A stretch of 64,000 nucleotides of DNA, from positions 7,999 to 71,998 of the forward strand of contig JAIORV010000162.1 of NCBI GenBank assembly GCA_021107945.1, in the 5' to 3' direction. The position numbers and the translations under genes were made by a program. Every line of letters starts with the position of its first letter. Position 1 is the first letter of the stretch. Origin of the DNA: Vulcanimicrobiota bacterium (lineage in GTDB: Bacteria; Vulcanimicrobiota; JAJTBE01). The notes under the pieces are model-generated. The model had not been told where the DNA came from. It did not search any database and saw only the letters and a list, made by a program, of their open reading frames with translations. This document shows, one piece after another, positions 8,363-62,468 of this stretch.

Positions 8363-9916
8363 ATGAAAAAAAATTACATAATACTTATCTTCTTTATCAT
8401 ATCACTGCTGTTATTTTCAAATTGCACGAATAAACTGAAAAAACCAGATTACTCGTCACAACCGACACTCTCAAAAGATCTGCTGAAGTTATCTCCTGAT
8501 GAAGTAAGAGAACTTGATAAAATAAAGAAAGAAGTAAGAGAACTTATGGAGCGGGATCGATATAAAACCGCTCTTAATATCTTGAATAAAGCTATAAAAA
8601 AGTTCCCCAGGCAACCGGATTTATATCTCATGCGGGCAAAATGTCTCATCGAAACGGTGGAATCAATTGCCGACAATCATAACAAAATAGAGGATAATTA
8701 CAATAAGGCTGTCAAATTGGGCGGCGGTGAAAAAGCCTACATTGCCAGGGCGGATTTCTTCTATATGTCCAGGCAATATAACAGAGCTATAATCGACTGC
8801 AAGAAAGCCATGAAGATGAACCCGAAAAATCCTGAGCCTTACATTATTCTTGCAACGATATATAAGGATGAAGATAACTCTGCAAGAGTTTTAGAAAACC
8901 TTACAAAAGCAATTAAGATAGCACCCGACGAAGCGTTGGGATATAGCCTGAGAGGCGCATGGTATTATAAACTACCGGGACATTTCAAGGAGTCGAGAAA
9001 AGACCTGGAGAAGGCGTTATCAAAGGATGACACCGATTTTTTTGCGCTATATTACCTGGGCAGTCTTTACAACAAGCAAATAGATTATAAAAATGCTCTG
9101 AAGATTTACAAGAAGGCATTGAAGCTTTCCGGGAATAATCAATGGAAAAAATTGAATAAGAAACATGACCTTTACTCCTTGAGAGGGTGGGGCATTCCTG
9201 CGGATATAAATATTGTTATGGCTGATGTATATGACCAGATGAATGATGTAAAAAGCGCATTGGAAGTAATTGAGAAGATGAAAGGCGTAAAAGGGATGAC
9301 CGGCCTTCTGATGCACCCCGAGAAAGGCTACCTCCTGCAAAAACTGGGACGAAACAAGGACGCCCTGAAGGAATACAAGCAATTCTTCGCCAAAAAGCCC
9401 GGCAAGAGCATGAGAATGGATAACGCAGGAAAGCGATTCTATTACGAGATGGAAGGTCGCTCTTATGAGGCACTGGGGCAGTATAAGGATGCACTCGATT
9501 CATATATTCGTTTGCAGGAAATTCACCCCGATGAAGATTTTAATTCGATGTACTTGCAGGGGAAAGTGTTGTACAAGATGAGTAAAGAAGAGCAAGCGCG
9601 GGCGTTTTACAGGAAAATTGATAATATTGGGGAGAACAGGTTTGGAGCAGCCTATAAAAAGGATCCTTTTATACGATCATTAAGGGGAGTCATTGGCACT
9701 GTGCTGGGAAAATATGATAAGGCACTTCCCCTTTTGAATGAAACCCTTAAAAGCCAGCCCCATAATGCGGAATTGCTTTATTTCCGGGCGGTATGCAACT
9801 TTAACCTGGGCAATAAAGAGCAAGCGAAAAAAGACCTTGATAAAGTGATACAAAAGGAGACGGAAAAGCCTTCCTTGAAAAAAGCAAAAGCCCTGAGGGA
9901 AAAGATCGAAAAATAG
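8363..9916 (+). CDS. TPR-repeat lipoprotein
   Basis: Lipoprotein signal MKKNYIILIFFIISLLLFSNC. Repeated 34-residue TPR-like units (AxxxYxxAL..P.....Y..R). A strong RBS GAGGGAGG lies upstream. Confidence 0.75.
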   Translation: MKKNYIILIFFIISLLLFSNCTNKLKKPDYSSQPTLSKDLLKLSPDEVRELDKIKKEVRELMERDRYKTALNILNKAIKKFPRQPDLYLMRAKCLIETVESIADNHNKIEDNYNKAVKLGGGEKAYIARADFFYMSRQYNRAIIDCKKAMKMNPKNPEPYIILATIYKDEDNSARVLENLTKAIKIAPDEALGYSLRGAWYYKLPGHFKESRKDLEKALSKDDTDFFALYYLGSLYNKQIDYKNALKIYKKALKLSGNNQWKKLNKKHDLYSLRGWGIPADINIVMADVYDQMNDVKSALEVIEKMKGVKGMTGLLMHPEKGYLLQKLGRNKDALKEYKQFFAKKPGKSMRMDNAGKRFYYEMEGRSYEALGQYKDALDSYIRLQEIHPDEDFNSMYLQGKVLYKMSKEEQARAFYRKIDNIGENRFGAAYKKDPFIRSLRGVIGTVLGKYDKALPLLNETLKSQPHNAELLYFRAVCNFNLGNKEQAKKDLDKVIQKETEKPSLKKAKALREKIEK

Positions 9917-10133: not shown

Positions 10134-11291
10134 ATGATCCATAAATCAACTAAACCTGAAACTAATCAAAACGATATAGCCAGGGTATCCGCCGGAACGG
10201 AGCGTGTCCTGGGATTGAGCAATATAAGAATGGAAGATCCTCCAACTTGCGCATATTTTATGATTGGTGAGAACTGCAAGGGCACATGTTTTTTCTGCGC
10301 CAGAAGAAGTGAAAGAGAAAATGAAAACATTGAAACATCACCCAATAATTCAACTTCAAAAAAGCGGGGATTCCTGTCCAGAGTGACCTGGAAACCATAC
10401 AATATTCATACGGTTCTGGAGAAAAACGCAGAGCAATTTGAAAATGGATCGATCAGGAGAACTTGCTTCCAGGTTGTCCGGGACACCGAAGCTTACAGAC
10501 AGACCCTTGAGGCGGTTAAGATGCTCAAGAAAAAATGTGATATTCCCGTATGTGTATCAATAAACGGAATATCCCCGGAGCAGTATGGCGAATTGTATGA
10601 GGCCGGGGTTGAGAGGATAGCGTTTTCGTTTGACGCCGCAACACCGGAATTATATGAGAAAATAAAAGGGAAGTCGTGGGATGAGGAATGGGAAATCTAC
10701 CTTGAAATAAACAGGCGCTTCCCCGGCAGGACGGTAATTCACCTGATAGTGGGACTAGGCGAGACCGAGAAGCAGATGGTAGGGGCGATTGAAACATTCT
10801 ATAGGCACAACTCGGAAGTCTCCCTGTTTGCATTCACGCCGATTCCCGGAACGCCGCTGTCAGGAAGAAAACAGCCTTCTCTTTCGACATACAGAAAGAT
10901 ACAAACCGCTCTTTATATGATAAGAACCGGCATGTGGCAATGTAGGAGGGACGTCCCCGTCCCGATAAACGGAGAATGGAAAACGGATGCCGGATGCCAG
11001 AGCTCACTTCCCGTTTCCCACTTCCCATTTCCCGCCTCCAGCATGTGGGACGTCCCCGTCCCGATGAAATGTAAAAATGAACTATATAAATTCGAAAACG
11101 ATAAAATTATATTTAATCGTGATAAAAGAGACTTCTTCATACAAAATATTCCACAGACCGCATTCCGCACATACGGATGCCCCGACTGTAACAGGCCTCT
11201 ATATAACGAAAGACCGGGGCAGGTTCCATATAATTTCCCCCGGGAGCTTACGGAGGAGGAGCGTATTTCTGCGATTGAGTTGATTTTTTGA
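10134..11291 (+). CDS. Radical SAM protein. The C-terminal third contains two in-frame copies of a dispersed palindromic repeat.
   Basis: CxxxCxxC cluster ENCKGTCFFCARR and a TIM-barrel-like core with GLGET. The translation reads through repeat copies at 10941-10970 and 11044-11069 (CRRDVPVPIN / MWDVPVPMKC). Confidence 0.65.
   Translation: MIHKSTKPETNQNDIARVSAGTERVLGLSNIRMEDPPTCAYFMIGENCKGTCFFCARRSERENENIETSPNNSTSKKRGFLSRVTWKPYNIHTVLEKNAEQFENGSIRRTCFQVVRDTEAYRQTLEAVKMLKKKCDIPVCVSINGISPEQYGELYEAGVERIAFSFDAATPELYEKIKGKSWDEEWEIYLEINRRFPGRTVIHLIVGLGETEKQMVGAIETFYRHNSEVSLFAFTPIPGTPLSGRKQPSLSTYRKIQTALYMIRTGMWQCRRDVPVPINGEWKTDAGCQSSLPVSHFPFPASSMWDVPVPMKCKNELYKFENDKIIFNRDKRDFFIQNIPQTAFRTYGCPDCNRPLYNERPGQVPYNFPRELTEEERISAIELIF
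10941..10970. repeat. REP-like palindromic element TGTAGGAGGGACGTCCCCGTCCCGATAAA, copy 1 (inside a CDS)
   Basis: The same 29-mer occurs at 33942-33970. The GGGACGTCCC core is a perfect palindrome. Confidence 0.8.
11044..11069. repeat. REP-like palindromic element, copy 2 (TGTGGGACGTCCCCGTCCCGATGAAA), inside a CDS
   Basis: Near-identical to copy 1, lying 99 bp (33 codons) downstream in the same frame. Confidence 0.75.
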
Positions 11292-11558
11292 TTATTCAAT
11301 GCAGAGGACGCAGAGAACGCGAAGGTTTTATATGATTTTCATATTATTTACCACAGAGTTCACAGAGGGCATATAGGTTAGAAGGAATCTATTTTATGAA
11401 TGCCACAAAATCCTCATCTTTGGCATCATAAAAGACCTTGATTTTATATTCAAATAGATTTCTAAATGTTGTACCTCCTGAGTATTGCAAGGAATTCTCC
11501 AATACTATAAGCTTTTTCTATAAAACATTGGTTCCTTTTTCATCAGATGATATCTACT

Positions 11559-11671
11559 CCGGGGCTGACTAAAAAGTTGTAATAGTCATCCTGAACTCGT
11601 TTCAGGATCTAATATTCAAACCGTTTGTCAGATCCCGAAACAAGTTCGGGATGACTTATCGAACAGCCCCG
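11559..11671. other. Nested double-palindrome structure in a convergent intergenic region (candidate bidirectional terminator, structured RNA or operator pair)
   Basis: Outer stem CCGGGGCTG / CAGCCCCG. Two inner 8-5-8 palindromes, ATCCTGAA-ctcgt-TTCAGGAT and ATCCCGAA-acaag-TTCGGGAT, are flanked by GTCAT / ATGAC. Confidence 0.4.
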
Positions 11672-11777: not shown

Positions 11778-14576
11778 TCACCTTGCCCCGTGCTTGCGGA
11801 GAAGGTTAACGATGTTGGTATTGCCATATTTTGCTGAATATTTCAGAGGCGTCATACCGTATTTGTCCTTCGCATTTACATCTGCGCCTTTGGATATAAG
11901 TAATTTGGCAGTTTCGGTTTTACCTTCAATTGCCGCCCAGTGCATAGGTGTCCATCCACGATTACTCTTTGCATTTATATCTGCGCCATTGGATATGAGG
12001 AGTTTGGCAGTGTCGGTTTTACCTTCAATTGCCGCCGTGTGCAGGGGTGTCAGTTCATAATTGTCCTTCGCATTTATATCTGCGCCCATGAATATAAGTA
12101 ATTTGGCAGTTTCGGTTTTACCTTCAATTGCCGCATGGTGCAAGGGTGTTCTACCATGTGAATCCTTCACTTTTATATTTGCTCTTTTTAGAAACAAAAA
12201 AGAAGCGAATATGACTGTTATCAATATAATAAAAGATAATGCCAGCAGACCCCAAGGGGACCTCTTACTACTCACCTTTTTGTCTAAATTTGTTCCCCCA
12301 AGAAGATTGACGATGTCGGCATAGCCCCCGGATTTTGCAAATTGTAGGGGCGTCTTTCCTGAATTATCCTTCGAGTCTATATCCGCTCCTTTAGATATTA
12401 AAAATCTGGCAGTGTCGGTTTTACCTTCAATTGCCGCCGTGTGCAGGGGTGTCAGTTCATAATTGTCCTTCGCATTTATATCTGCGCCCATGAATATAAG
12501 TAATTTGGCAGTTTCGGTTTTACCTTCAATTGCCGCATGGTGCAAGGGTGTTCTACCATGTGAATCCTTCACTTTTATATTTGCTCTTTTTAGAAACAAA
12601 AAAGAAGCGAATATGACTGTTATCAATATAATAAAAGATAATGCCAGCAGACCCCAAGGGGACCTCTTACTACTCACCTTTTTGTCTAAATTTGTTCCCC
12701 CAAGAAGATTGACGATGTCGGCATAGCCCCCGGATTTTGCAAATTGTAGGGGCGTCTTTCCTGAATTATCCTTCGAGTCTATATCCGCTCCTTTAGATAT
12801 TAAAAATCTGGCAGTGTCTGTTTTACCTTCTATTGCCGCTCGGTGCAGGGGTGTCCCGCCGTCATTGTCCTTCTCATTTATATTTGCGCCTTTTGATATG
12901 AGGAGCTTTGCGGTGTCGGTTTCACCATTCCTTGCCGCTTGGTGCAGGGATGTCCATCCGCTATTGTCCTTCTCATTAACATTCGCGCCCTTGGATATAA
13001 GGAGCTTGGTAATGTCGGTATTACCTTCTATCGCCGCACAGTACAGGGGTGTCTCATCGTTATTGTTCTTTGTATTCATATTTGCGCCTTTGGATATAAG
13101 GAGCTTGGCAGTGTCGGTTTTACCATAAAATGCCGCCTTATGCAGGGGTGTCTGGCCATAATTGTCCTTCGCATTTACATTTGCGCCATTCCCTATCAGG
13201 AATCTGGTGGTGAAGATTTTACCTTCAATTGCCGCATTGTGCAAGGATGTCCAACCCTTATTATCCTTCGCATTTACATCCGCCCCCTTGAATACTAAAA
13301 GACTGACTATCCTGAAGGCATCGGAATAGCACGACCCTGCTGCAATATGAAGAGGTGGCACGCCGTAATCGTCCTTCGCATTTACATCCGCGCCCTGGTT
13401 GATATGTTCCTTGACTTTTGCCATATTACCATACTTCACCGCCTTAAAAAAATCATTATATCTACCAAATGGTTTCTTAGGAAAATGTGAGGGAGATTGG
13501 GGAGCAGGAACATGGGCATGGGCAGGAGCAGGAACAGATGTATGTGTAAGCGTAGGCGTAGGTGTAGGTGTAGGTGCAGGATACCTCACGCCACTTGTCG
13601 GGTAGCCTGAGGCAACAGCCCCAGGTGGTTTTGAAATATGAGTGGGTGCAGGTGTAGATACAGTTCCAGGATACCGCCCACCACCTCCATCAAGTATCTC
13701 AATGATCATATCAATCGAACCGGGACGGTTGACGCTGGATATATCCACCATGGACATGATGAGATCGTCAAGAAATTCGGGAACATTATTATTTAAATTT
13801 CTCACCGATTCGAATGTAAAAAGAGGACGGGACGGGTCTTCGGGATTGAGACCGGTAAGGAGATAGTGAATCAGAACCCCCAGGGAAAAAATATCGTTCA
13901 GCGGGGAATCATTGCCACGGTACTGGTCAGGAGAAGCATAGCCCTGCGTTCCCAACATCGTGCCTTTTTGCAGGGGCTTCAATATCTTGGCAATTCCAAA
14001 ATCAATAAGATAGAGCTTACTGTCTTTTATCATTGTATTTGAAGGCTTCAGATCACGGTAAATAACAGGGGGATTCTGAGAATGCAGGTAAGAGAATATG
14101 TCGAGGATTTGCCGGAAATATCCCATAACCTCGTCAAGGGGAAGCGGTGGAATGTTCTGCCTCAGATAGCATTCCAGATCCATGCCTTCGATGAATGTCA
14201 TCACAAGGTAATGTGATGTTTTTCCGCCGGAATCTTTTTTGGTGAAATAATCCGTTACCTTGGGAAGTCCTCCGTGATGGAGCTTCGCCAGCAGTTTTGC
14301 TTCTCTCAGGAACATCTCCTGAAATTTCTTCCCATCTGCATCCAGGTTATAGGTCGCCTGCATTTTTTTAACGGCTACGGTCTCTCCCAGGCGTGTGTCA
14401 ACGGCTCGATAGATACAACCCATGTTCCCTGACTTTAACATGCTTTCCACCTGATATCTGTCGTCCAGAAGCTCAACTTTCCGGGTGGCTGACGGCGACA
14501 TATTCGCCCCGCATTCGTTGCAATACTTCGCTGATGATTTTTGTTTTTTTCCGCAGACAGGGCAGAAACGATCCAT
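11778..14576 (-). CDS. Zinc-ribbon / Ser-Thr protein kinase / ankyrin-repeat protein, paralog A (two TM helices from an internal duplication)
   Basis: N-terminal CPVCGKK...YCNECG zinc ribbon. Kinase motifs VAVKKM, YRDLKPSN, DFGIAK and GYASPDQ. PTPTPT linker, then about 17 ANK repeats (TPLHxAAxxGxxDxxKLLIxxGADVNAKD). A TM helix WGLLALSFIILITVIFASFLFL occurs twice. An ATG at 14576 matches the paralog starts (MDRFC); the track start at 14591 is a TTG. Confidence 0.85.
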   Translation of the reverse strand: MDRFCPVCGKKQKSSAKYCNECGANMSPSATRKVELLDDRYQVESMLKSGNMGCIYRAVDTRLGETVAVKKMQATYNLDADGKKFQEMFLREAKLLAKLHHGGLPKVTDYFTKKDSGGKTSHYLVMTFIEGMDLECYLRQNIPPLPLDEVMGYFRQILDIFSYLHSQNPPVIYRDLKPSNTMIKDSKLYLIDFGIAKILKPLQKGTMLGTQGYASPDQYRGNDSPLNDIFSLGVLIHYLLTGLNPEDPSRPLFTFESVRNLNNNVPEFLDDLIMSMVDISSVNRPGSIDMIIEILDGGGGRYPGTVSTPAPTHISKPPGAVASGYPTSGVRYPAPTPTPTPTLTHTSVPAPAHAHVPAPQSPSHFPKKPFGRYNDFFKAVKYGNMAKVKEHINQGADVNAKDDYGVPPLHIAAGSCYSDAFRIVSLLVFKGADVNAKDNKGWTSLHNAAIEGKIFTTRFLIGNGANVNAKDNYGQTPLHKAAFYGKTDTAKLLISKGANMNTKNNNDETPLYCAAIEGNTDITKLLISKGANVNEKDNSGWTSLHQAARNGETDTAKLLISKGANINEKDNDGGTPLHRAAIEGKTDTARFLISKGADIDSKDNSGKTPLQFAKSGGYADIVNLLGGTNLDKKVSSKRSPWGLLALSFIILITVIFASFLFLKRANIKVKDSHGRTPLHHAAIEGKTETAKLLIFMGADINAKDNYELTPLHTAAIEGKTDTARFLISKGADIDSKDNSGKTPLQFAKSGGYADIVNLLGGTNLDKKVSSKRSPWGLLALSFIILITVIFASFLFLKRANIKVKDSHGRTPLHHAAIEGKTETAKLLIFMGADINAKDNYELTPLHTAAIEGKTDTAKLLISNGADINAKSNRGWTPMHWAAIEGKTETAKLLISKGADVNAKDKYGMTPLKYSAKYGNTNIVNLLRKHGAR
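12035..12838. repeat. Perfect 402-bp direct tandem duplication inside kinase paralog A
   Basis: Plus-strand track ORFs 12061-12324 and 12463-12726 have identical translations. The minus-strand protein repeats a 134-aa block (ANK, TM helix, 2 ANK) twice without any change. Confidence 0.85.
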
Positions 14577-14652
14577 TAAGTGTTCCCCCAAAAGAAAATT
14601 ATGGTACTATTCGGACATCTCTTGTAGTAAAAAACTATTCAATCCCGATTTC
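14577..14652 (-). promoter_or_regulatory. Conserved about 80-bp leader/promoter block shared by the three kinase paralogs (copy A)
   Basis: CCAAAAGAAAATTATGGTACTATTCGGACATCTCTTGTAGTAAAAAACTATTCAATCCCGATTTCAT aligns with 18168-18250 and 20716-20800. On the coding strand it contains TTGAATAG and CATAAT boxes and a GGGGGA RBS. Confidence 0.45.
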
Positions 14653-14712
14653 ATGCCGTTTCCCGGCGGGTCGGGAGACCCGCCGCTACCCAAATAGGGG
14701 ACGGGTCTGAAT
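14653..14712. ncRNA. About 60-nt conserved hairpin element (candidate small RNA or MITE), copy 1
   Basis: ATGCCGTTTCC-CGGCGGGTC-GGGA-GACCCGCCG-CTACCCAAATAGGGG. The reverse complement of 26281-26340 carries the same element with two compensatory base-pair changes in the 9-bp stem. Confidence 0.4.
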
Positions 14713-15194
14713 GATTATCCTTTTTATGCCCATTTTTATGACATTAATTATACTTCTGTCACTATAACATTACAGTCTTGATTATATCGTTCTATTCCAA
14801 CGGAATATGCCCTTCCTTATTAAAAAGATCCCTTGCAATCTGTAATTCTGAGTGGACTACGAAAGAATTGCTCTAATCCGATGACTTGCTCAAAGACGTG
14901 ATTATATTGATGCTTGTGATTTACAAAGCGAAGAATCCCTCGAATGTTGGCTTGAGATATCACGCAACATGTGTGATGACAGCGTGGACGACTCTCTTGC
15001 GGGAGATCATTCGCTGTGAAAGACATCGGAGGTAAGTAATACCATTTTGGATTCAAATTTGCCGCATGGGCAGAAAGCCGGTAGCTTCGGCGTCCCCGCC
15101 GGAGAAAGTATTGCGCCGAGGGCGGTTGTCCTCGGTTACACGGACTGAATGTATGCAAAATCTTTCAACGATCAGATTTTCAGGATCTGTTTTA

Positions 15195-18167: not shown

Positions 18168-18250
18168 TAAGACTCCTCCAAAAAATTTGATACTATTCGG
18201 ATATCTCTTTTGATAAAAAACTATTCAATCTCGATTTCATGCCGTTTACG
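18168..18250 (-). promoter_or_regulatory. Conserved leader/promoter block, copy B
   Basis: Aligns with 14577-14652 and 20716-20800. A GGAGGA RBS lies 8 nt upstream of the ATG. Confidence 0.45.
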
Positions 18251-18417
18251 GGTCAATCAGAAGACCGGCATTCATGTTCGGTTAAGGTGTTTTCTGATAG
18301 TATTTACCTGGTAGAGGTTGGCTCCTGAGCAACTTGACAGGGTCATGAAACTGTCAAAACGCCTTAAACACGACGGGCCTCCCGATCCGTCATTGCCCAA
18401 TAAAAGTTCTATTTTAT

Positions 18418-20715: not shown

Positions 20716-20800
20716 TAAGATAAGACTCCCCCAAAAATTATGATGTTATTCGGACATCTCTTGTGGTGAAAACTATTCAATCACGATTCCATAACTATTC
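20716..20800 (-). promoter_or_regulatory. Conserved leader/promoter block, copy C
   Basis: Aligns with copies A and B. Confidence 0.45.
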
Positions 20801-20918
20801 GGACCGGCCAAAAGACCGGTCTGGAATTAAATCTCGGTGTGGTTGGAATGATTATCCTTTTTTTCAAACTCTGCGTCCTCCGCATCCTCTGCGGTGAATA
20901 CTCAAAGTCATCAAAAAA

Positions 20919-25971: not shown

Positions 25972-26280
25972 TTTTCATTAACCCCCTTGATAAAATAAAT
26001 TATTAAAGGCTCCTCAAAACAAGACCAGGGATAGGAGCCAGCAAAGTAAATAAAATTAAAATCATTGAAATATCACCTTGTATATTTCAATTTCTGCTTC
26101 CAAAATCCTCCGGATCATGGTTCGTGATAAAAAAAAGATTGTACCCATTAAGACTAACCGCAGCAAGAGAGGCTCCCAGCCTCGATTCTAATGGCAGTCC
26201 GCCTCGATATTCGTGGTAAGATGCTACTCCCATAAAGGAGGTTTTAATGTTTTAAAGATTGATATTTAAAGTGTAATTAT

Positions 26281-26340
26281 TCAGACCGCCCCACTATTTG
26301 GGTAGAGGCTGGTCTCCCGACCAGCCTGGAAACGGCATAA
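26281..26340. ncRNA. About 60-nt conserved hairpin element, copy 2 (reverse orientation relative to copy 1)
   Basis: rc = TTATGCCGTTTCC-AGGCTGGTC-GGGA-GACCAGCCT-CTACCCAAATAGTGGGG. The stem is preserved by compensatory changes relative to 14653-14712. Confidence 0.4.
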
Positions 26341-26366
26341 AATAGGGGTTGGGAAACCCCTACAGA
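26340..26366. repeat. REP-like element in reverse orientation (rc = TCTGTAGGGGTTTCCCAACCCCTATTT)
   Basis: Matches TGTAGGAGGGGTTTCCTAACCCCGATAAA at 37618-37649. Confidence 0.6.
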
Positions 26367-26385
26367 ATGGGTCTGAATACATACT

Positions 26386-26811
26386 TTAAATTGTGTCCCT
26401 TATTGATGAAAGCCTTAGTGCGAATTTCTCTGCCGATTCCTCGTTGCCGATTATTTCAAAGTCAAAAAGAAATCCCCCATTTTCTTCGACAATTTTCATG
26501 AGATGTTTTAGAGAAGTTGATGCTCTATTAACTTTCTTTGTAACGAAGACTGCAATTTGCTTTCCTCCGATAAAGGGGCTGTTATTGATAAATTCTTCAA
26601 ATTCCATCGGAATTCCACCGCTCCGGGATGTTTGCCCAAGTCCAATAATTATCAGTTTTGAGGAGGAGAACAGTCCGGAATGAAATGTGTCAGTTTTTTC
26701 CGCCTCTTTGATTTCGAAAAGATCAACATCAAATCCCTCGTCCCTGAGGGCTTTTCCCATTGTTTTTACGATGTTGGTGATTTCCTTATTATAGGCAATT
26801 GCAAGTTTCAC
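26386..26811 (-). CDS. Flavodoxin-like fold protein
   Basis: MKLAIAYN start, then IIIGLGQTSRSGG and IAVFVTKK, giving an alpha/beta flavodoxin-like pattern. 141 aa. Confidence 0.45.
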   Translation of the reverse strand: MKLAIAYNKEITNIVKTMGKALRDEGFDVDLFEIKEAEKTDTFHSGLFSSSKLIIIGLGQTSRSGGIPMEFEEFINNSPFIGGKQIAVFVTKKVNRASTSLKHLMKIVEENGGFLFDFEIIGNEESAEKFALRLSSIRDTI

Positions 26812-33941: not shown

Positions 33942-34040
33942 TGTAGGAGGGACGTCCCCGTCCCGATAAATGGAAAATGGAAAATGGATGTTGGAAAATG
34001 GATGACGGATAACGGCTCTCGTTTCCCACGTCCCGGCTAA
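33942..34040. repeat. REP-like element, copy 3, plus an adjacent GGAAAATGGA microsatellite, in a convergent intergenic region
   Basis: TGTAGGAGGGACGTCCCCGTCCCGATAAA is identical to 10941-10969. It is followed by TGGAAAATGGAAAATGGATG... and GTTTCCCACGTCCCGG, which resembles 10996-11030. Confidence 0.8.
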
Positions 34041-37591: not shown

Positions 37592-37680
37592 TCACCGCAA
37601 AGACCACAAAGAATTTTTGTAGGAGGGGTTTCCTAACCCCGATAAACCCTTTGCGTCCTTTGCTTCTTTGCGGTTAATTT
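37592..37680. repeat. Composite hairpin element: triple-heptamer arms CCGCAAAG-ACCACAAAG / CTTTGCGTC-CTTTGCTTC-TTTGCGG around an internal REP-like core
   Basis: The arms are reverse complements of each other. The core TGTAGGAGGGGTTTCCTAACCCCGATAAA belongs to the same family as the 10941 and 33942 elements. Confidence 0.7.
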
Positions 37681-37763
37681 TAATCATCCAAATATTTACC
37701 CACATAATATAGAGAAGAGCTGAATAAATTCTCTGCGGACTCCGCGATCTCCGCGGTTAATAA

Positions 37764-39080: not shown

Positions 39081-39140
39081 GAAGGAAATATCCAGTTTAT
39101 TATATTAAAAACTCCGTGTTCTCCGTGACTTCGTGGTAAA
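39043..39140. repeat. Composite hairpin element: CCACGAAG-CCACGGAG-TTCACGAAGG ... AT-rich loop ... CTCCGTG-TTCTCCGTG-ACTTCGTGG-TAA
   Basis: 26-nt imperfect inverted arms built from three heptamer units. Same architecture as 37592-37680 and 62395-62468. Confidence 0.7.
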
Positions 39141-39184
39141 TTCAAACCTGACTCATACCACTTCCAATCTTCATCTTCCATTTT

Positions 39185-41305: not shown

Positions 41306-41489
41306 ATTAAAGGTACCGCCATATCAGAATGGTATTTTTATATATTTGACACATATTATACAGAAAAGTTCCTGTTTATGCAAATTAATTTCCGGATATT
41401 TATTCATCGCAAAGACCACAAAGATTTTAATCTTACCACGAAGCCAAGAAGGACACGAAGAAATGTATGGGACTCCATTCTTTGTTCTC

Positions 41490-46497: not shown

Positions 46498-46705
46498 GGG
46501 CAAAAGATAATGCGCTACATGATTCTTTTTGGTTACTACTCAGCAGTAGATCCCAAAGGTAGAGATCCTTCGAAGTGTAATACATCGGAGGTATGGAATT
46601 TCCGTTCTTTCACTTCGTTCGAGGACAGCTTCTCAAGGAAAGTAAAAGAATCGTATTCCGCTCAGGATGACAACTCCAATACTCCATTCATAATGACATC
46701 AAGAA

Positions 46706-55308: not shown

Positions 55309-55781
55309 TTCCTCATCCGTTATTATAAAATTTTGTTTGTGTGGAGGGAGGAAGCCGCATACTTCAAGCTTTGTAATTCTCTATTATTATTAATATTCCT
55401 TTTGAAAGGTATCTTAATAATAATTATTGAATAGCAAGAAAAACAGGAAAGACATAGTAAGGGAATGATATCTTTCCTGTCCCGCCGACGGGGGTAAGAC
55501 CGGGTAAGGCAGTCCGTATGATCCATCAATATTTGAAATAGAATTGACTTCTTGATTGTTACCGGAATTATAGAGTATTTTATGATTTGTTAGATCATCC
55601 AATAATCCGGGTATAGTCCGGTTTTCCCACCGTCCTGAAAATGGCATAAAATAAAGGCCGTCTGCAGGTGGTTTCAGGTGACTATTTCGATTTTCGTCTC
55701 CGGATTGCCTTGAAACAAGCTCTTTTTCTGCTAATAGGTTCAGGGAGGATGTTTGCCATATATTATCGGGGGGCGTTTAAA

Positions 55782-56711
55782 ATGTATTTCTGTGAATATC
55801 TCAAGAAAATAAAGTTTAACAGGGTGGCTTTATATGTTTTATTTATATTATTGGCAATGAATCTTGCATGTTCACAAAAAACAACCACCAGGCACGATTC
55901 AATAAAGAAGTCCCCGTCTTCACCGGATAAGACCCCGTCTTCCTCGCTATTCAAGCCTTTGAATAAGAAAAAGAAGCTCGGAACAGATTCGGAAAAATTC
56001 ATTGTCCTGGGGGATGAATTATTTTTAAAAGGAGATTTCGACTCGGCCTCCATAAAATATAATTTGGCTTTGAAGGCGAATCCCTCTTCCGTGGATGCCT
56101 GTATTCGTCTTGGCGATATTTACCTGCGAAAAGGGGAATATAAAAAGTCAGGCGAATTTTTTAAAAAAGCGATAGATATTGAGCCTGAAAATAAATTTGC
56201 CAGGTTTGGATATGCCGACATACTGTTGGAGATGGGTGAAAAAGAAGACTCGGAATGGCAATTAAGGCAAGTGATTTCTTTTGACCCGAAATTTGCGCAG
56301 GCTTATACAAGTCTGGGGGATATTTACCTTGACAGTGGTAAGCAAAATAAGGCCGGGGAAATGTTCAGGAAATCCCTTGAAATTATGCCGGATCAGAATT
56401 TTCCCGATACTTACATCGGCATGGGAGAGCTTAATCTTGCAAGGTTGAAGTATCAAGAGGCGCTTGAATCTTTTAACACAGCAAAGAAAAAGGATCCTTA
56501 TGACATTGACGGTTACCTGGGGGCGGCGAGAGCATTGACGGCATTGAAGAGATATGAAGATGCCAAGAGGAATTATAAAAAAGCTCTTGAAATTTTCCCG
56601 GATCACAGGGAAGCTTGTGAGATGTTAGTGGAGTTTTACAAGGATCGCGGAATGCATGATAAAGCAAAAAAACTCAGGGATAAGTTGCCTGTTCCTGATT
56701 TGCAGCCTTGA
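55782..56711 (+). CDS. TPR-repeat lipoprotein
   Basis: Signal peptide with lipobox (LAMNLACSQ) if started at the ATG at 55782. Six or more TPR units. Confidence 0.7.
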   Translation: MYFCEYLKKIKFNRVALYVLFILLAMNLACSQKTTTRHDSIKKSPSSPDKTPSSSLFKPLNKKKKLGTDSEKFIVLGDELFLKGDFDSASIKYNLALKANPSSVDACIRLGDIYLRKGEYKKSGEFFKKAIDIEPENKFARFGYADILLEMGEKEDSEWQLRQVISFDPKFAQAYTSLGDIYLDSGKQNKAGEMFRKSLEIMPDQNFPDTYIGMGELNLARLKYQEALESFNTAKKKDPYDIDGYLGAARALTALKRYEDAKRNYKKALEIFPDHREACEMLVEFYKDRGMHDKAKKLRDKLPVPDLQP

Positions 56712-56762
56712 TATGGGTGTTTTACTAATTACTACAAAGAGCGCTGAGGACGCAGAGTTTTC

Positions 56763-62321: not shown

Positions 62322-62394
62322 GCTTTCGCCAGTTGTCTTTAGTCCAACTGAATCCACAATCGCTCTCCTTTCGATTTTTTTAAACGCAGAGATC

Positions 62395-62468
62395 GCGGAG
62401 TTCGCAGAGGATAACCGGAGAAAAAACATTGATACCTCTGTGTTCTCTGTGTCCTCTGTGGTAAAAAA
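62395..62468. repeat. Composite hairpin element: CGCAGAG-ATCGCGGAG-TTCGCAGAGG ... CCTCTGTG-TTCTCTGTG-TCCTCTGTGG-TAA
   Basis: Same triple-heptamer inverted-arm architecture as 39043-39140 and 37592-37680. Confidence 0.7.

Follow-up and report, generated by a model that had tools for sequence, protein, structure and literature searches.

A GTAG-hairpin repeat upstream of a triplicated kinase gene, probably mobile and of the REP/REPIN-type MITE sort, in an uncultured Eremiobacterota lineage

What is the structured element that occupies the long spacer between two tandem paralogs, and why is its stem still paired in copies whose stem sequence has changed? We addressed this question in a 64,000-nucleotide stretch of contig JAIORV010000162.1 (hereafter the window), taken from a metagenome-assembled genome labelled Candidatus Eremiobacteraeota (locus tags K8T10_). 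A first-pass annotation of the window had proposed selection on a hairpin, with a small RNA family, a protein-binding stem-loop and a structured MITE as the candidates. The genes concerned, A, B and C, are tandem paralogs on the minus strand, each combining a zinc ribbon, a Ser/Thr kinase domain and ankyrin repeats. As had been remarked, the A-B spacer is the longer one (603 nt at 14592-15194 vs 250 nt at 18168-18417 for B-C) and holds no credible ORF: a 112-aa minus-strand ORF and several shorter ones are without a Pfam match, and the spacer DNA is homologous to another contig, L006, whose version is frame-shifted and contains a stop. The element copy in this spacer, w1, is crossed by a single ORF (14393-14710, plus strand) that corresponds to antisense read-through of gene A. 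Gene A itself contains an internal duplication with a 402-nt offset (copies 11947-12246 and 12349-12648, 93% identical over the 300 nt compared), by which ankyrin units and a predicted membrane segment are both repeated. The tandem array A to C expanded recently and has no counterpart in the syntenic region of a JGI relative (contig L005), and a kinase-domain search returned only relatives at 64% identity or less, with A, B and C themselves not among the matches listed.

The quoted element, ATGCCGTTTCC-CGGCGGGTC-GGGA-GACCCGCCG-CTACCCAAATAG, is indeed present at 14653-14697 on the plus strand, and its second copy, ATGCCGTTTCC-AGGCTGGTC-GGGA-GACCAGCCT-CTACCCAAATAG, at 26294-26338 on the minus strand, the two being opposite in orientation relative to their flanking genes, as reported. 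A pattern search of the window with the stem left free retrieves exactly these two sites (14653 and 26294), against 0.00 expected from 100 shuffles, and the homology extends past the 60 nt originally described, aligning 14604-14720 with 26384-26271. With an nhmmer profile built from the element copies, both of the partial copies suggested earlier proved real (18186-18281, E=3e-9; 55581-55689, E=2e-27), and a fifth window copy that had been missed was recovered at 20739-20856 (E=1e-6). The copies and their parts are as follows.

14604-14720, plus strand: w1, a full unit made of a left inverted repeat, a decayed GTAG hairpin module, a spacer, the hairpin H2 and a right inverted repeat.
14608-14616 and 14705-14713: left (TATTCGGAC) and right (GTCTGAATG) inverted repeats of w1.
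14664-14689, minus strand: the hairpin of the first-pass annotation; its minus-strand reading, GTAG + CGGCGGGTC + TCCC + GACCCGCCG, makes it a GTAG-tagged REP-type unit.
18186-18281, plus strand: degenerate copy ahead of kinase gene B; the tandem duplication of the genes makes it a paralog of w1.
20739-20856, plus strand: degenerate copy upstream of kinase gene C, in which the hairpin still forms in a partly shifted register.
26271-26384, minus strand: w2, the best-preserved unit, with 10-bp terminal inverted repeats TATTCAGACC/GGTCTGAATA and two outward-headed GTAG hairpins.
26343-26363: H1, the left hairpin of w2, GTAG-GGGTT-TCCC-AACCC.
26302-26327: H2 of w2.
26385-26390 and 26265-26270: TTTAAA flanks of w2.
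55581-55689, minus strand: w3, an older, decayed copy in a divergent DnaJ/TPR intergenic region, with 6/9 stem positions still pairing.
16393-16475 of L006: w4, at a fourth independent locus about 4 kb beyond the window start, with the stem of w1 and without the left unit.

The element thus delimited measures 114-117 nt and is non-coding, and the roughly 77 kb of this genome that was read contains 6 copies at 4 independent loci, in both orientations and various states of decay. The inverted repeats of w1 match at 8/10 positions, its flanks are ambiguous (TTATG...TTATG, offset by 3 nt), and 28 nt separate its edge from the likely ATG of gene A (14576). Because A, B and C each carry a version just upstream of the start codon, the unit must have been present before the kinase-ankyrin triplication.

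The copy at 26.3 kb is an insertion into intergenic DNA. Its neighbors are a 141-aa gene and a 950-aa nucleotidyltransferase/phosphomannomutase gene; it begins 6 nt past the stop codon of the former and is on the same strand as both. The gap between these two genes measures 414 nt in the window, 108 nt in contigs L002-L004 of a sister organism (about 80% protein identity) and 173 nt in L005 (61%), and alignment reveals a 240-nt block that is found in the window only and is missing at the orthologous site of both relatives. This block consists of two adjacent insertions, with w2 followed by 17 nt of ancestral sequence and then by a second insert:

26141-26253, minus strand: insert of 113 nt with AATCTTT direct repeats on both sides, missing in both relatives.

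Within the second insert are a GAGGC-TGGGA-GCCTC hairpin and an internal duplication of 22 nt, and segments related to it adjoin both element copies on a metagenomic contig discussed below (L018). The terminal inverted repeats of w2 are perfect (TATTCAGACC...GGTCTGAATA, 10/10), and its predicted fold, a closing stem bearing three local hairpins, scores z=-5.7 for one strand and z=-5.3 for the opposite one. The 6-bp TTTAAA duplication combined with an empty site in relatives makes w2 alone among the copies a clean case, although TTTAAA, being a palindrome and a single case, is weaker evidence for target duplication than a non-palindromic repeat; w4 and the L018 copies have no defined left end. 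As for w3, the copy is absent from the syntenic site of contig L026, which we rejected as a clean empty site because other repeats fill it. At this DnaJ/TPR site, L026 carries at 9189-9202 a terminal motif, TGTCATTGCGAGCG, related to the end of a second repeat, R2, described below. Upstream of the DnaJ gene, the window (55309-55800) and L026 (9700-9790) have in common a conserved hairpin with a T run behind it (AGGAAAGAT...ATCTTTCCTGTTTTT), unlike the repeats that surround it.

The element's hairpins follow a design that recurs well outside the element. The window contains 7 hairpins in which a perfect stem of 5 bp or more closes a TCCC loop, against 0.38 expected, and in six of the seven a GTAG stands 0-3 nt 5' of the stem on the loop strand, with GTGG in its place in the seventh. 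The enrichment is confined to this loop class, since a generic count of any 4-mer head joined to any hairpin gives 8 against 7.5. The GTAG/TCCC design is common to at least seven further hairpins of the window and the adjoining sequence of the same contig, with stems of 5-9 bp and a loop of 4 nt, and 11 perfect units occur in the ~77 kb read, or about one per 7 kb. Examples lying outside the element copies are listed here.

15081-15101, plus strand: solitary GTAG-tagged hairpin, GTAG ctt CGGCG TCCC CGCCG.
10942-10963, plus strand: related GTAG/TCCC hairpin, GTAG ga GGGACG TCCC CGTCCC.
11047-11062, 33943-33964 and 37619-37640: sister units of the hairpin at 10942-10963.

These last units belong to a family, GTAGGA-GGGACG-TCCC-CGTCCC-GATAAA, found at 10.9, 11.0 and 33.9 kb, with the stem variants GGGGTT/AACCCC (37619-37640, where GTAG is present and the loop is TCCT) and GGATG/CATCC, and with a member in the sister species (L002 4860-4875). 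The hairpins at 10942-10963 and 11047-11062 lie in frame and 99 nt apart inside a radical-SAM ORF (10134-11291), where both translate as DVPVP and look like in-frame repeat insertions. In w2 two such modules are arranged in the order GTAG-H1, 18-nt spacer, H2-CTAC, with their heads outward and the GGGA loops of H1 and H2 on opposite strands. We conclude that w2 is a head-to-head heterodimer of GTAG-tagged REPs enclosed in extra terminal inverted repeats.

This architecture can be placed against two known classes of bacterial repeats. GTAG-tagged REPs carry an unpaired GTAG tag and stems of 6-13 bp (mostly 6-9 bp), with alternative complementary stem residues and G-T pairs (Di Nocera et al. 2013, PMC3733652), and they form head-to-head dimers with conserved spacers as well as heterodimers, with occasional copies inside genes (PMC3733652). 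Like these, REPINs and enterobacterial BIMEs, the units described here have an unpaired GTAG end on a short G/C-rich stem-loop and complementary stem sub-families; as among GTAG REPs, they pair in an inverted, outward-headed arrangement across a short conserved spacer, with partner stems unlike each other, and occur as singletons, dimers, mosaics and copies in genes. They differ from GTAG REPs in their constant TCCC loop, in the 10-bp terminal inverted repeats around the dimer and in the 6-bp flanking duplication at w2, which is not expected of movement by a tyrosine (HUH) transposase, and no RAYT gene was seen in the window or the fetched loci. The second class comprises bacterial MITEs with a folded interior, such as Correia/NEMIS, RUP and ERIC. 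The element resembles these in being about 100-150 nt long, non-coding and intergenic in either orientation, in its terminal inverted repeats and, at w2, an apparent flanking duplication, in its presence or absence between relatives, in the one long fold that it can adopt and in its positions, since such MITEs often lie in leaders or between cistrons. It departs from them in an interior built of GTAG hairpin modules that are also found alone, in a left module swapped between copies, and in that no parent insertion sequence with matching ends was found in the ~150 kb searched. The host, moreover, is an uncultured Eremiobacterota/Vulcanimicrobiota MAG, and a literature search found no paper linking REPs or MITEs to this phylum.

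Taken together, we consider with good confidence that the element is an interspersed mobile repeat of about 115 nt, non-coding, in which a REPIN/BIME-like dimer is packaged like a MITE. In the model that we propose, terminal inverted repeats enclose two facing hairpins (GTAG + stem + TCCC + stem) separated by a spacer of some 18 nt, and an enzyme encoded elsewhere in the genome would move this unit in trans. The copies themselves show insertion into intergenic DNA, both orientations and subsequent decay, and the one upstream of gene A was carried along in the kinase-ankyrin triplication. Stem pairing would persist through the propagation of intact-hairpin copies alone and through dispersed copies overwriting each other, and effects on neighboring genes, such as a structured 5' leader of the kinase genes or an intercistronic hairpin at 26.3 kb, would be by-products. 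The two sets of features point to different classes of enzyme. The inverted repeats and the duplication favor a classical transposase that works on the terminal repeats, to which we give somewhat less than an even chance, whereas the GTAG hairpins favor a REP-associated tyrosine (HUH) transposase reading GTAG and hairpin in single-stranded DNA, a possibility that we hold to be real and rather less probable. No transposase of any kind, including RAYT genes, was detected in the window or in the fetched flanks and loci.

How the pairing is kept bears directly on this model. As first noticed, the 9-bp stems of w1 and w2 (CGGCGGGTC/GACCCGCCG vs AGGCTGGTC/GACCAGCCT) differ at positions 1 and 5, with both changes compensated. 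Over eight copies, 90.3% of stem cells are paired, a figure that drops to 25-43% once the partners are slid; both-side changes affect 3/9 stem pairs, one of which occurs in three types (C-G, U-A and G-C), and none of 500 shuffles reached the observed covariation score. The five well-preserved copies carry two stem alleles, each in several copies: w1 and w4 have CGGCGGGTC, w2 and L018a have AGGCTGGTC, and L018b has a form of AGGCTGGTC altered at one base. Furthermore, the left half of w1 shares about 90% identity with the copies upstream of B and C, and its right, hairpin half matches w2, w4 and L018a at about 90% and resembles its own paralogs only weakly. This mosaic implies that dispersed copies exchange sequence, and it indicates gene conversion or re-insertion as the probable route. 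We therefore rejected selection in place, as it might be read from compensatory changes between the tandem paralog copies, on account of the w1 mosaic and of the shifted register in which the hairpin upstream of C pairs.

The same observations lend some weight to an account in which mutation itself keeps the pairing, either by template switching within a quasi-palindrome or by gene conversion that spreads stem alleles between dispersed copies. Both the sharing of two alleles among the five copies and the resemblance of the w1 hairpin half to distant copies are what it would predict; it leaves unexplained, however, the constancy of the GTAG head and TCCC loop across unrelated stems, which fits recognition by a protein. 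As the whole explanation we regard it as possible and on balance unlikely, and it supplements the mobile-repeat explanation rather than competing with it. What the covariation records is hairpin alleles being propagated and exchanged as wholes, rather than separate adaptive changes at the individual sites. The step from covariation to selection on the hairpin accordingly stands in one part, in that pairing is maintained, and in more copies than first described; it does not extend to an RNA gene, because compensatory stem variants are routine in such repeats (PMC3733652, PMC3116915) and common in REPINs in particular (Bertels & Rainey 2011, PMC3116915).

A further reading would have the host domesticate the element as a structural site, kept at particular loci, for instance the leaders of the three kinase-ankyrin genes or the 26.3-kb intercistronic position, to bind a nucleoid or topology protein or to serve as an mRNA-stabilizing or insulating hairpin. 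The positions of the copies are suggestive here, with the left half maintained at about 90% identity in all three paralogs 28 nt upstream of their start codons, and w2 placed 6 nt after the stop of the 141-aa gene on the strand of its neighbors, and roles of this kind are hypothesized for REPs elsewhere (PMC3733652). Among the three paralog copies, however, conservation is lowest in the hairpin half, and the relatives are without the element at the 26.3-kb site. We find domestication improbable, and it would in any case add to a mobile origin for the repeat rather than replace it.

More improbable still is that the copies represent a small RNA gene family or a cis-regulatory RNA motif, with the GGGA (GNRA-type) loop acting in RNA and the covariation recording selection on RNA structure. 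The stem covariation, a folding energy well below that of shuffles and, on the strand originally given, the GNRA-type loop and a single T-G pair in L018b are all compatible with such a reading; yet both strands fold about equally well (z -5.7 vs -5.3), the GGGA loops of the two hairpins of one unit fall on opposite strands, orientation relative to neighboring genes is inconsistent, orthologous sites in relatives are empty or different, and decay is visible in several copies. Scans for promoter-like and terminator-like sites were negative at either copy, and Rfam searches at the gathering threshold and at E<=10 over the window and related loci returned only three distant tRNAs and chance-level matches, leaving the element without a match even at E<=10. 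Among the three candidates originally named, the structured MITE alone fits, because of the empty orthologous sites, terminal inverted repeats and 6-bp flanking duplication of w2, the occurrence in every orientation, the decay and the lack of a promoter, terminator or Rfam match; the small RNA family and the protein-binding stem-loop do not. Retrons, integron attC sites, CRISPR repeats and group II intron fragments were discarded for want of an Rfam match and of any reverse transcriptase, integrase or cas gene next to the element.

Further copies, whose absence would have counted against the first-pass annotation, do exist, and the dispersed repeat also occurs outside the window. The contig L006 ends 8 nt after w4 (end 16483), and a Logan contig of the same strain, L001, ends (7654) in the loop of the 26.3-kb hairpin; such breaks at the copies are expected, because the element is repetitive. 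No further copy lies in the 8.4 kb past the window end. Among 185,579 reference genomes (GTDB species representatives), a pattern with exact flanks gave no matches and a relaxed pattern gave 7, all due to chance (0-3/9 stem pairs). In JGI metagenomes the exact-flank pattern likewise found no matches and the relaxed one 8 loci, of which L018 was the only true contig after a check of stem pairing. L018 carries two copies, L018a and L018b, in inverted orientation and bracketing AbiLi/AbiLii defense genes. The interval concerned (L018 1372-4630) comprises, between the inverted copies, the AbiLi/AbiLii abortive-infection pair, a 74-aa ORF and a copy of R2, and it may be a repeat-bounded mobile defense island. 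A covariance model of the element core (R1) found nothing further in the 152 kb searched, including 39 kb of the nearest JGI relative.

The rest of the A-B spacer, of which some 300 bp had been called unexplained, GC-richer and hairpin-rich, can now be largely accounted for. The rise in GC is real (up to 0.52-0.59 at 15000-15150), as is the quoted hairpin CCGAGGGCGGTTGTCCTCGG at 15116-15135, and most of the stretch consists of a truncated copy of the second repeat, R2, and the solitary GTAG hairpin already listed, which leaves the hairpin at 15116-15135 as a part for which no family was found. The AT-rich segment 14721-14836, likewise assigned to no repeat, separates w1 from these features:

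14841-15041, plus strand: left part of R2, with a terminal repeat of the TGTCATYCTGAGCG type.
15116-15135, strand not assigned: the quoted hairpin, CCGAGG GCGGTTGT CCTCGG, for which no repeat family was found.
46562-46672 of the window: right-end fragment of R2.

The interval 14818-15041 matches L006 15630-15843 (67% over 215 nt), L018 1881-2000 (75%) and L005 16215-16316 (75%), and a full R2 unit of 272 nt with 14-bp inverted ends (TGTCATYCTGAGCG) is present at L006 15568-15839; R2 is common to this genome and its relatives. It is without covariation in RNAalifold. Other small repeats accompany these. Downstream of gene A, at 11584-11660, a pair of hairpins (GTCATCCTGAA...TTCAGGAT and GATCCCGAA-ACAAG-TTCGGGATGAC) is akin to the L018b left module, the two differing by a T-A to C-G change that is compensated, and represents another palindromic repeat family. 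Short 9-mer-like repeat runs of the CTCTGCGGA, CTCCGCGAT and CACAGAGGA types are found at gene ends in both orientations (11300-11378, 20866-20906, 37728-37763, 39112-39146, 41426-41460, 56720-56760 and 62377-62468), and L005 contains similar runs.

Overall, the hairpin in the A-B spacer is an ordinary one for the bacterial REP/MITE class, the small-RNA reading is not supported, and the element opens no new mechanism; what it represents is a new repeat family of the known REP/REPIN-type MITE sort in an uncultured and poorly studied phylum. One might go further and suppose that the GTAG/TCCC modules constitute a lineage-specific Eremiobacterota REP system with consequences beyond selfish spread, in which the unit upstream of the three kinase-ankyrin genes would have been co-opted as their common leader or promoter and inverted pairs would move cargo. 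The latter is hinted at by the AbiL genes between the two copies on L018, and we consider the proposal as a whole a long shot. In bacteria, small palindromic repeats leave their mark on intergenic DNA, cause breaks in metagenome assemblies and can change how neighboring genes are expressed, and this family is visible both in assembly breaks, at the ends of two contigs from other assemblies of this organism, and in the leader of a triplicated kinase gene. R1 provides a concrete model for masking or counting such repeats, and the GTAG-headed REP design, known mainly from Proteobacteria, is also present in an uncultured Eremiobacterota lineage.
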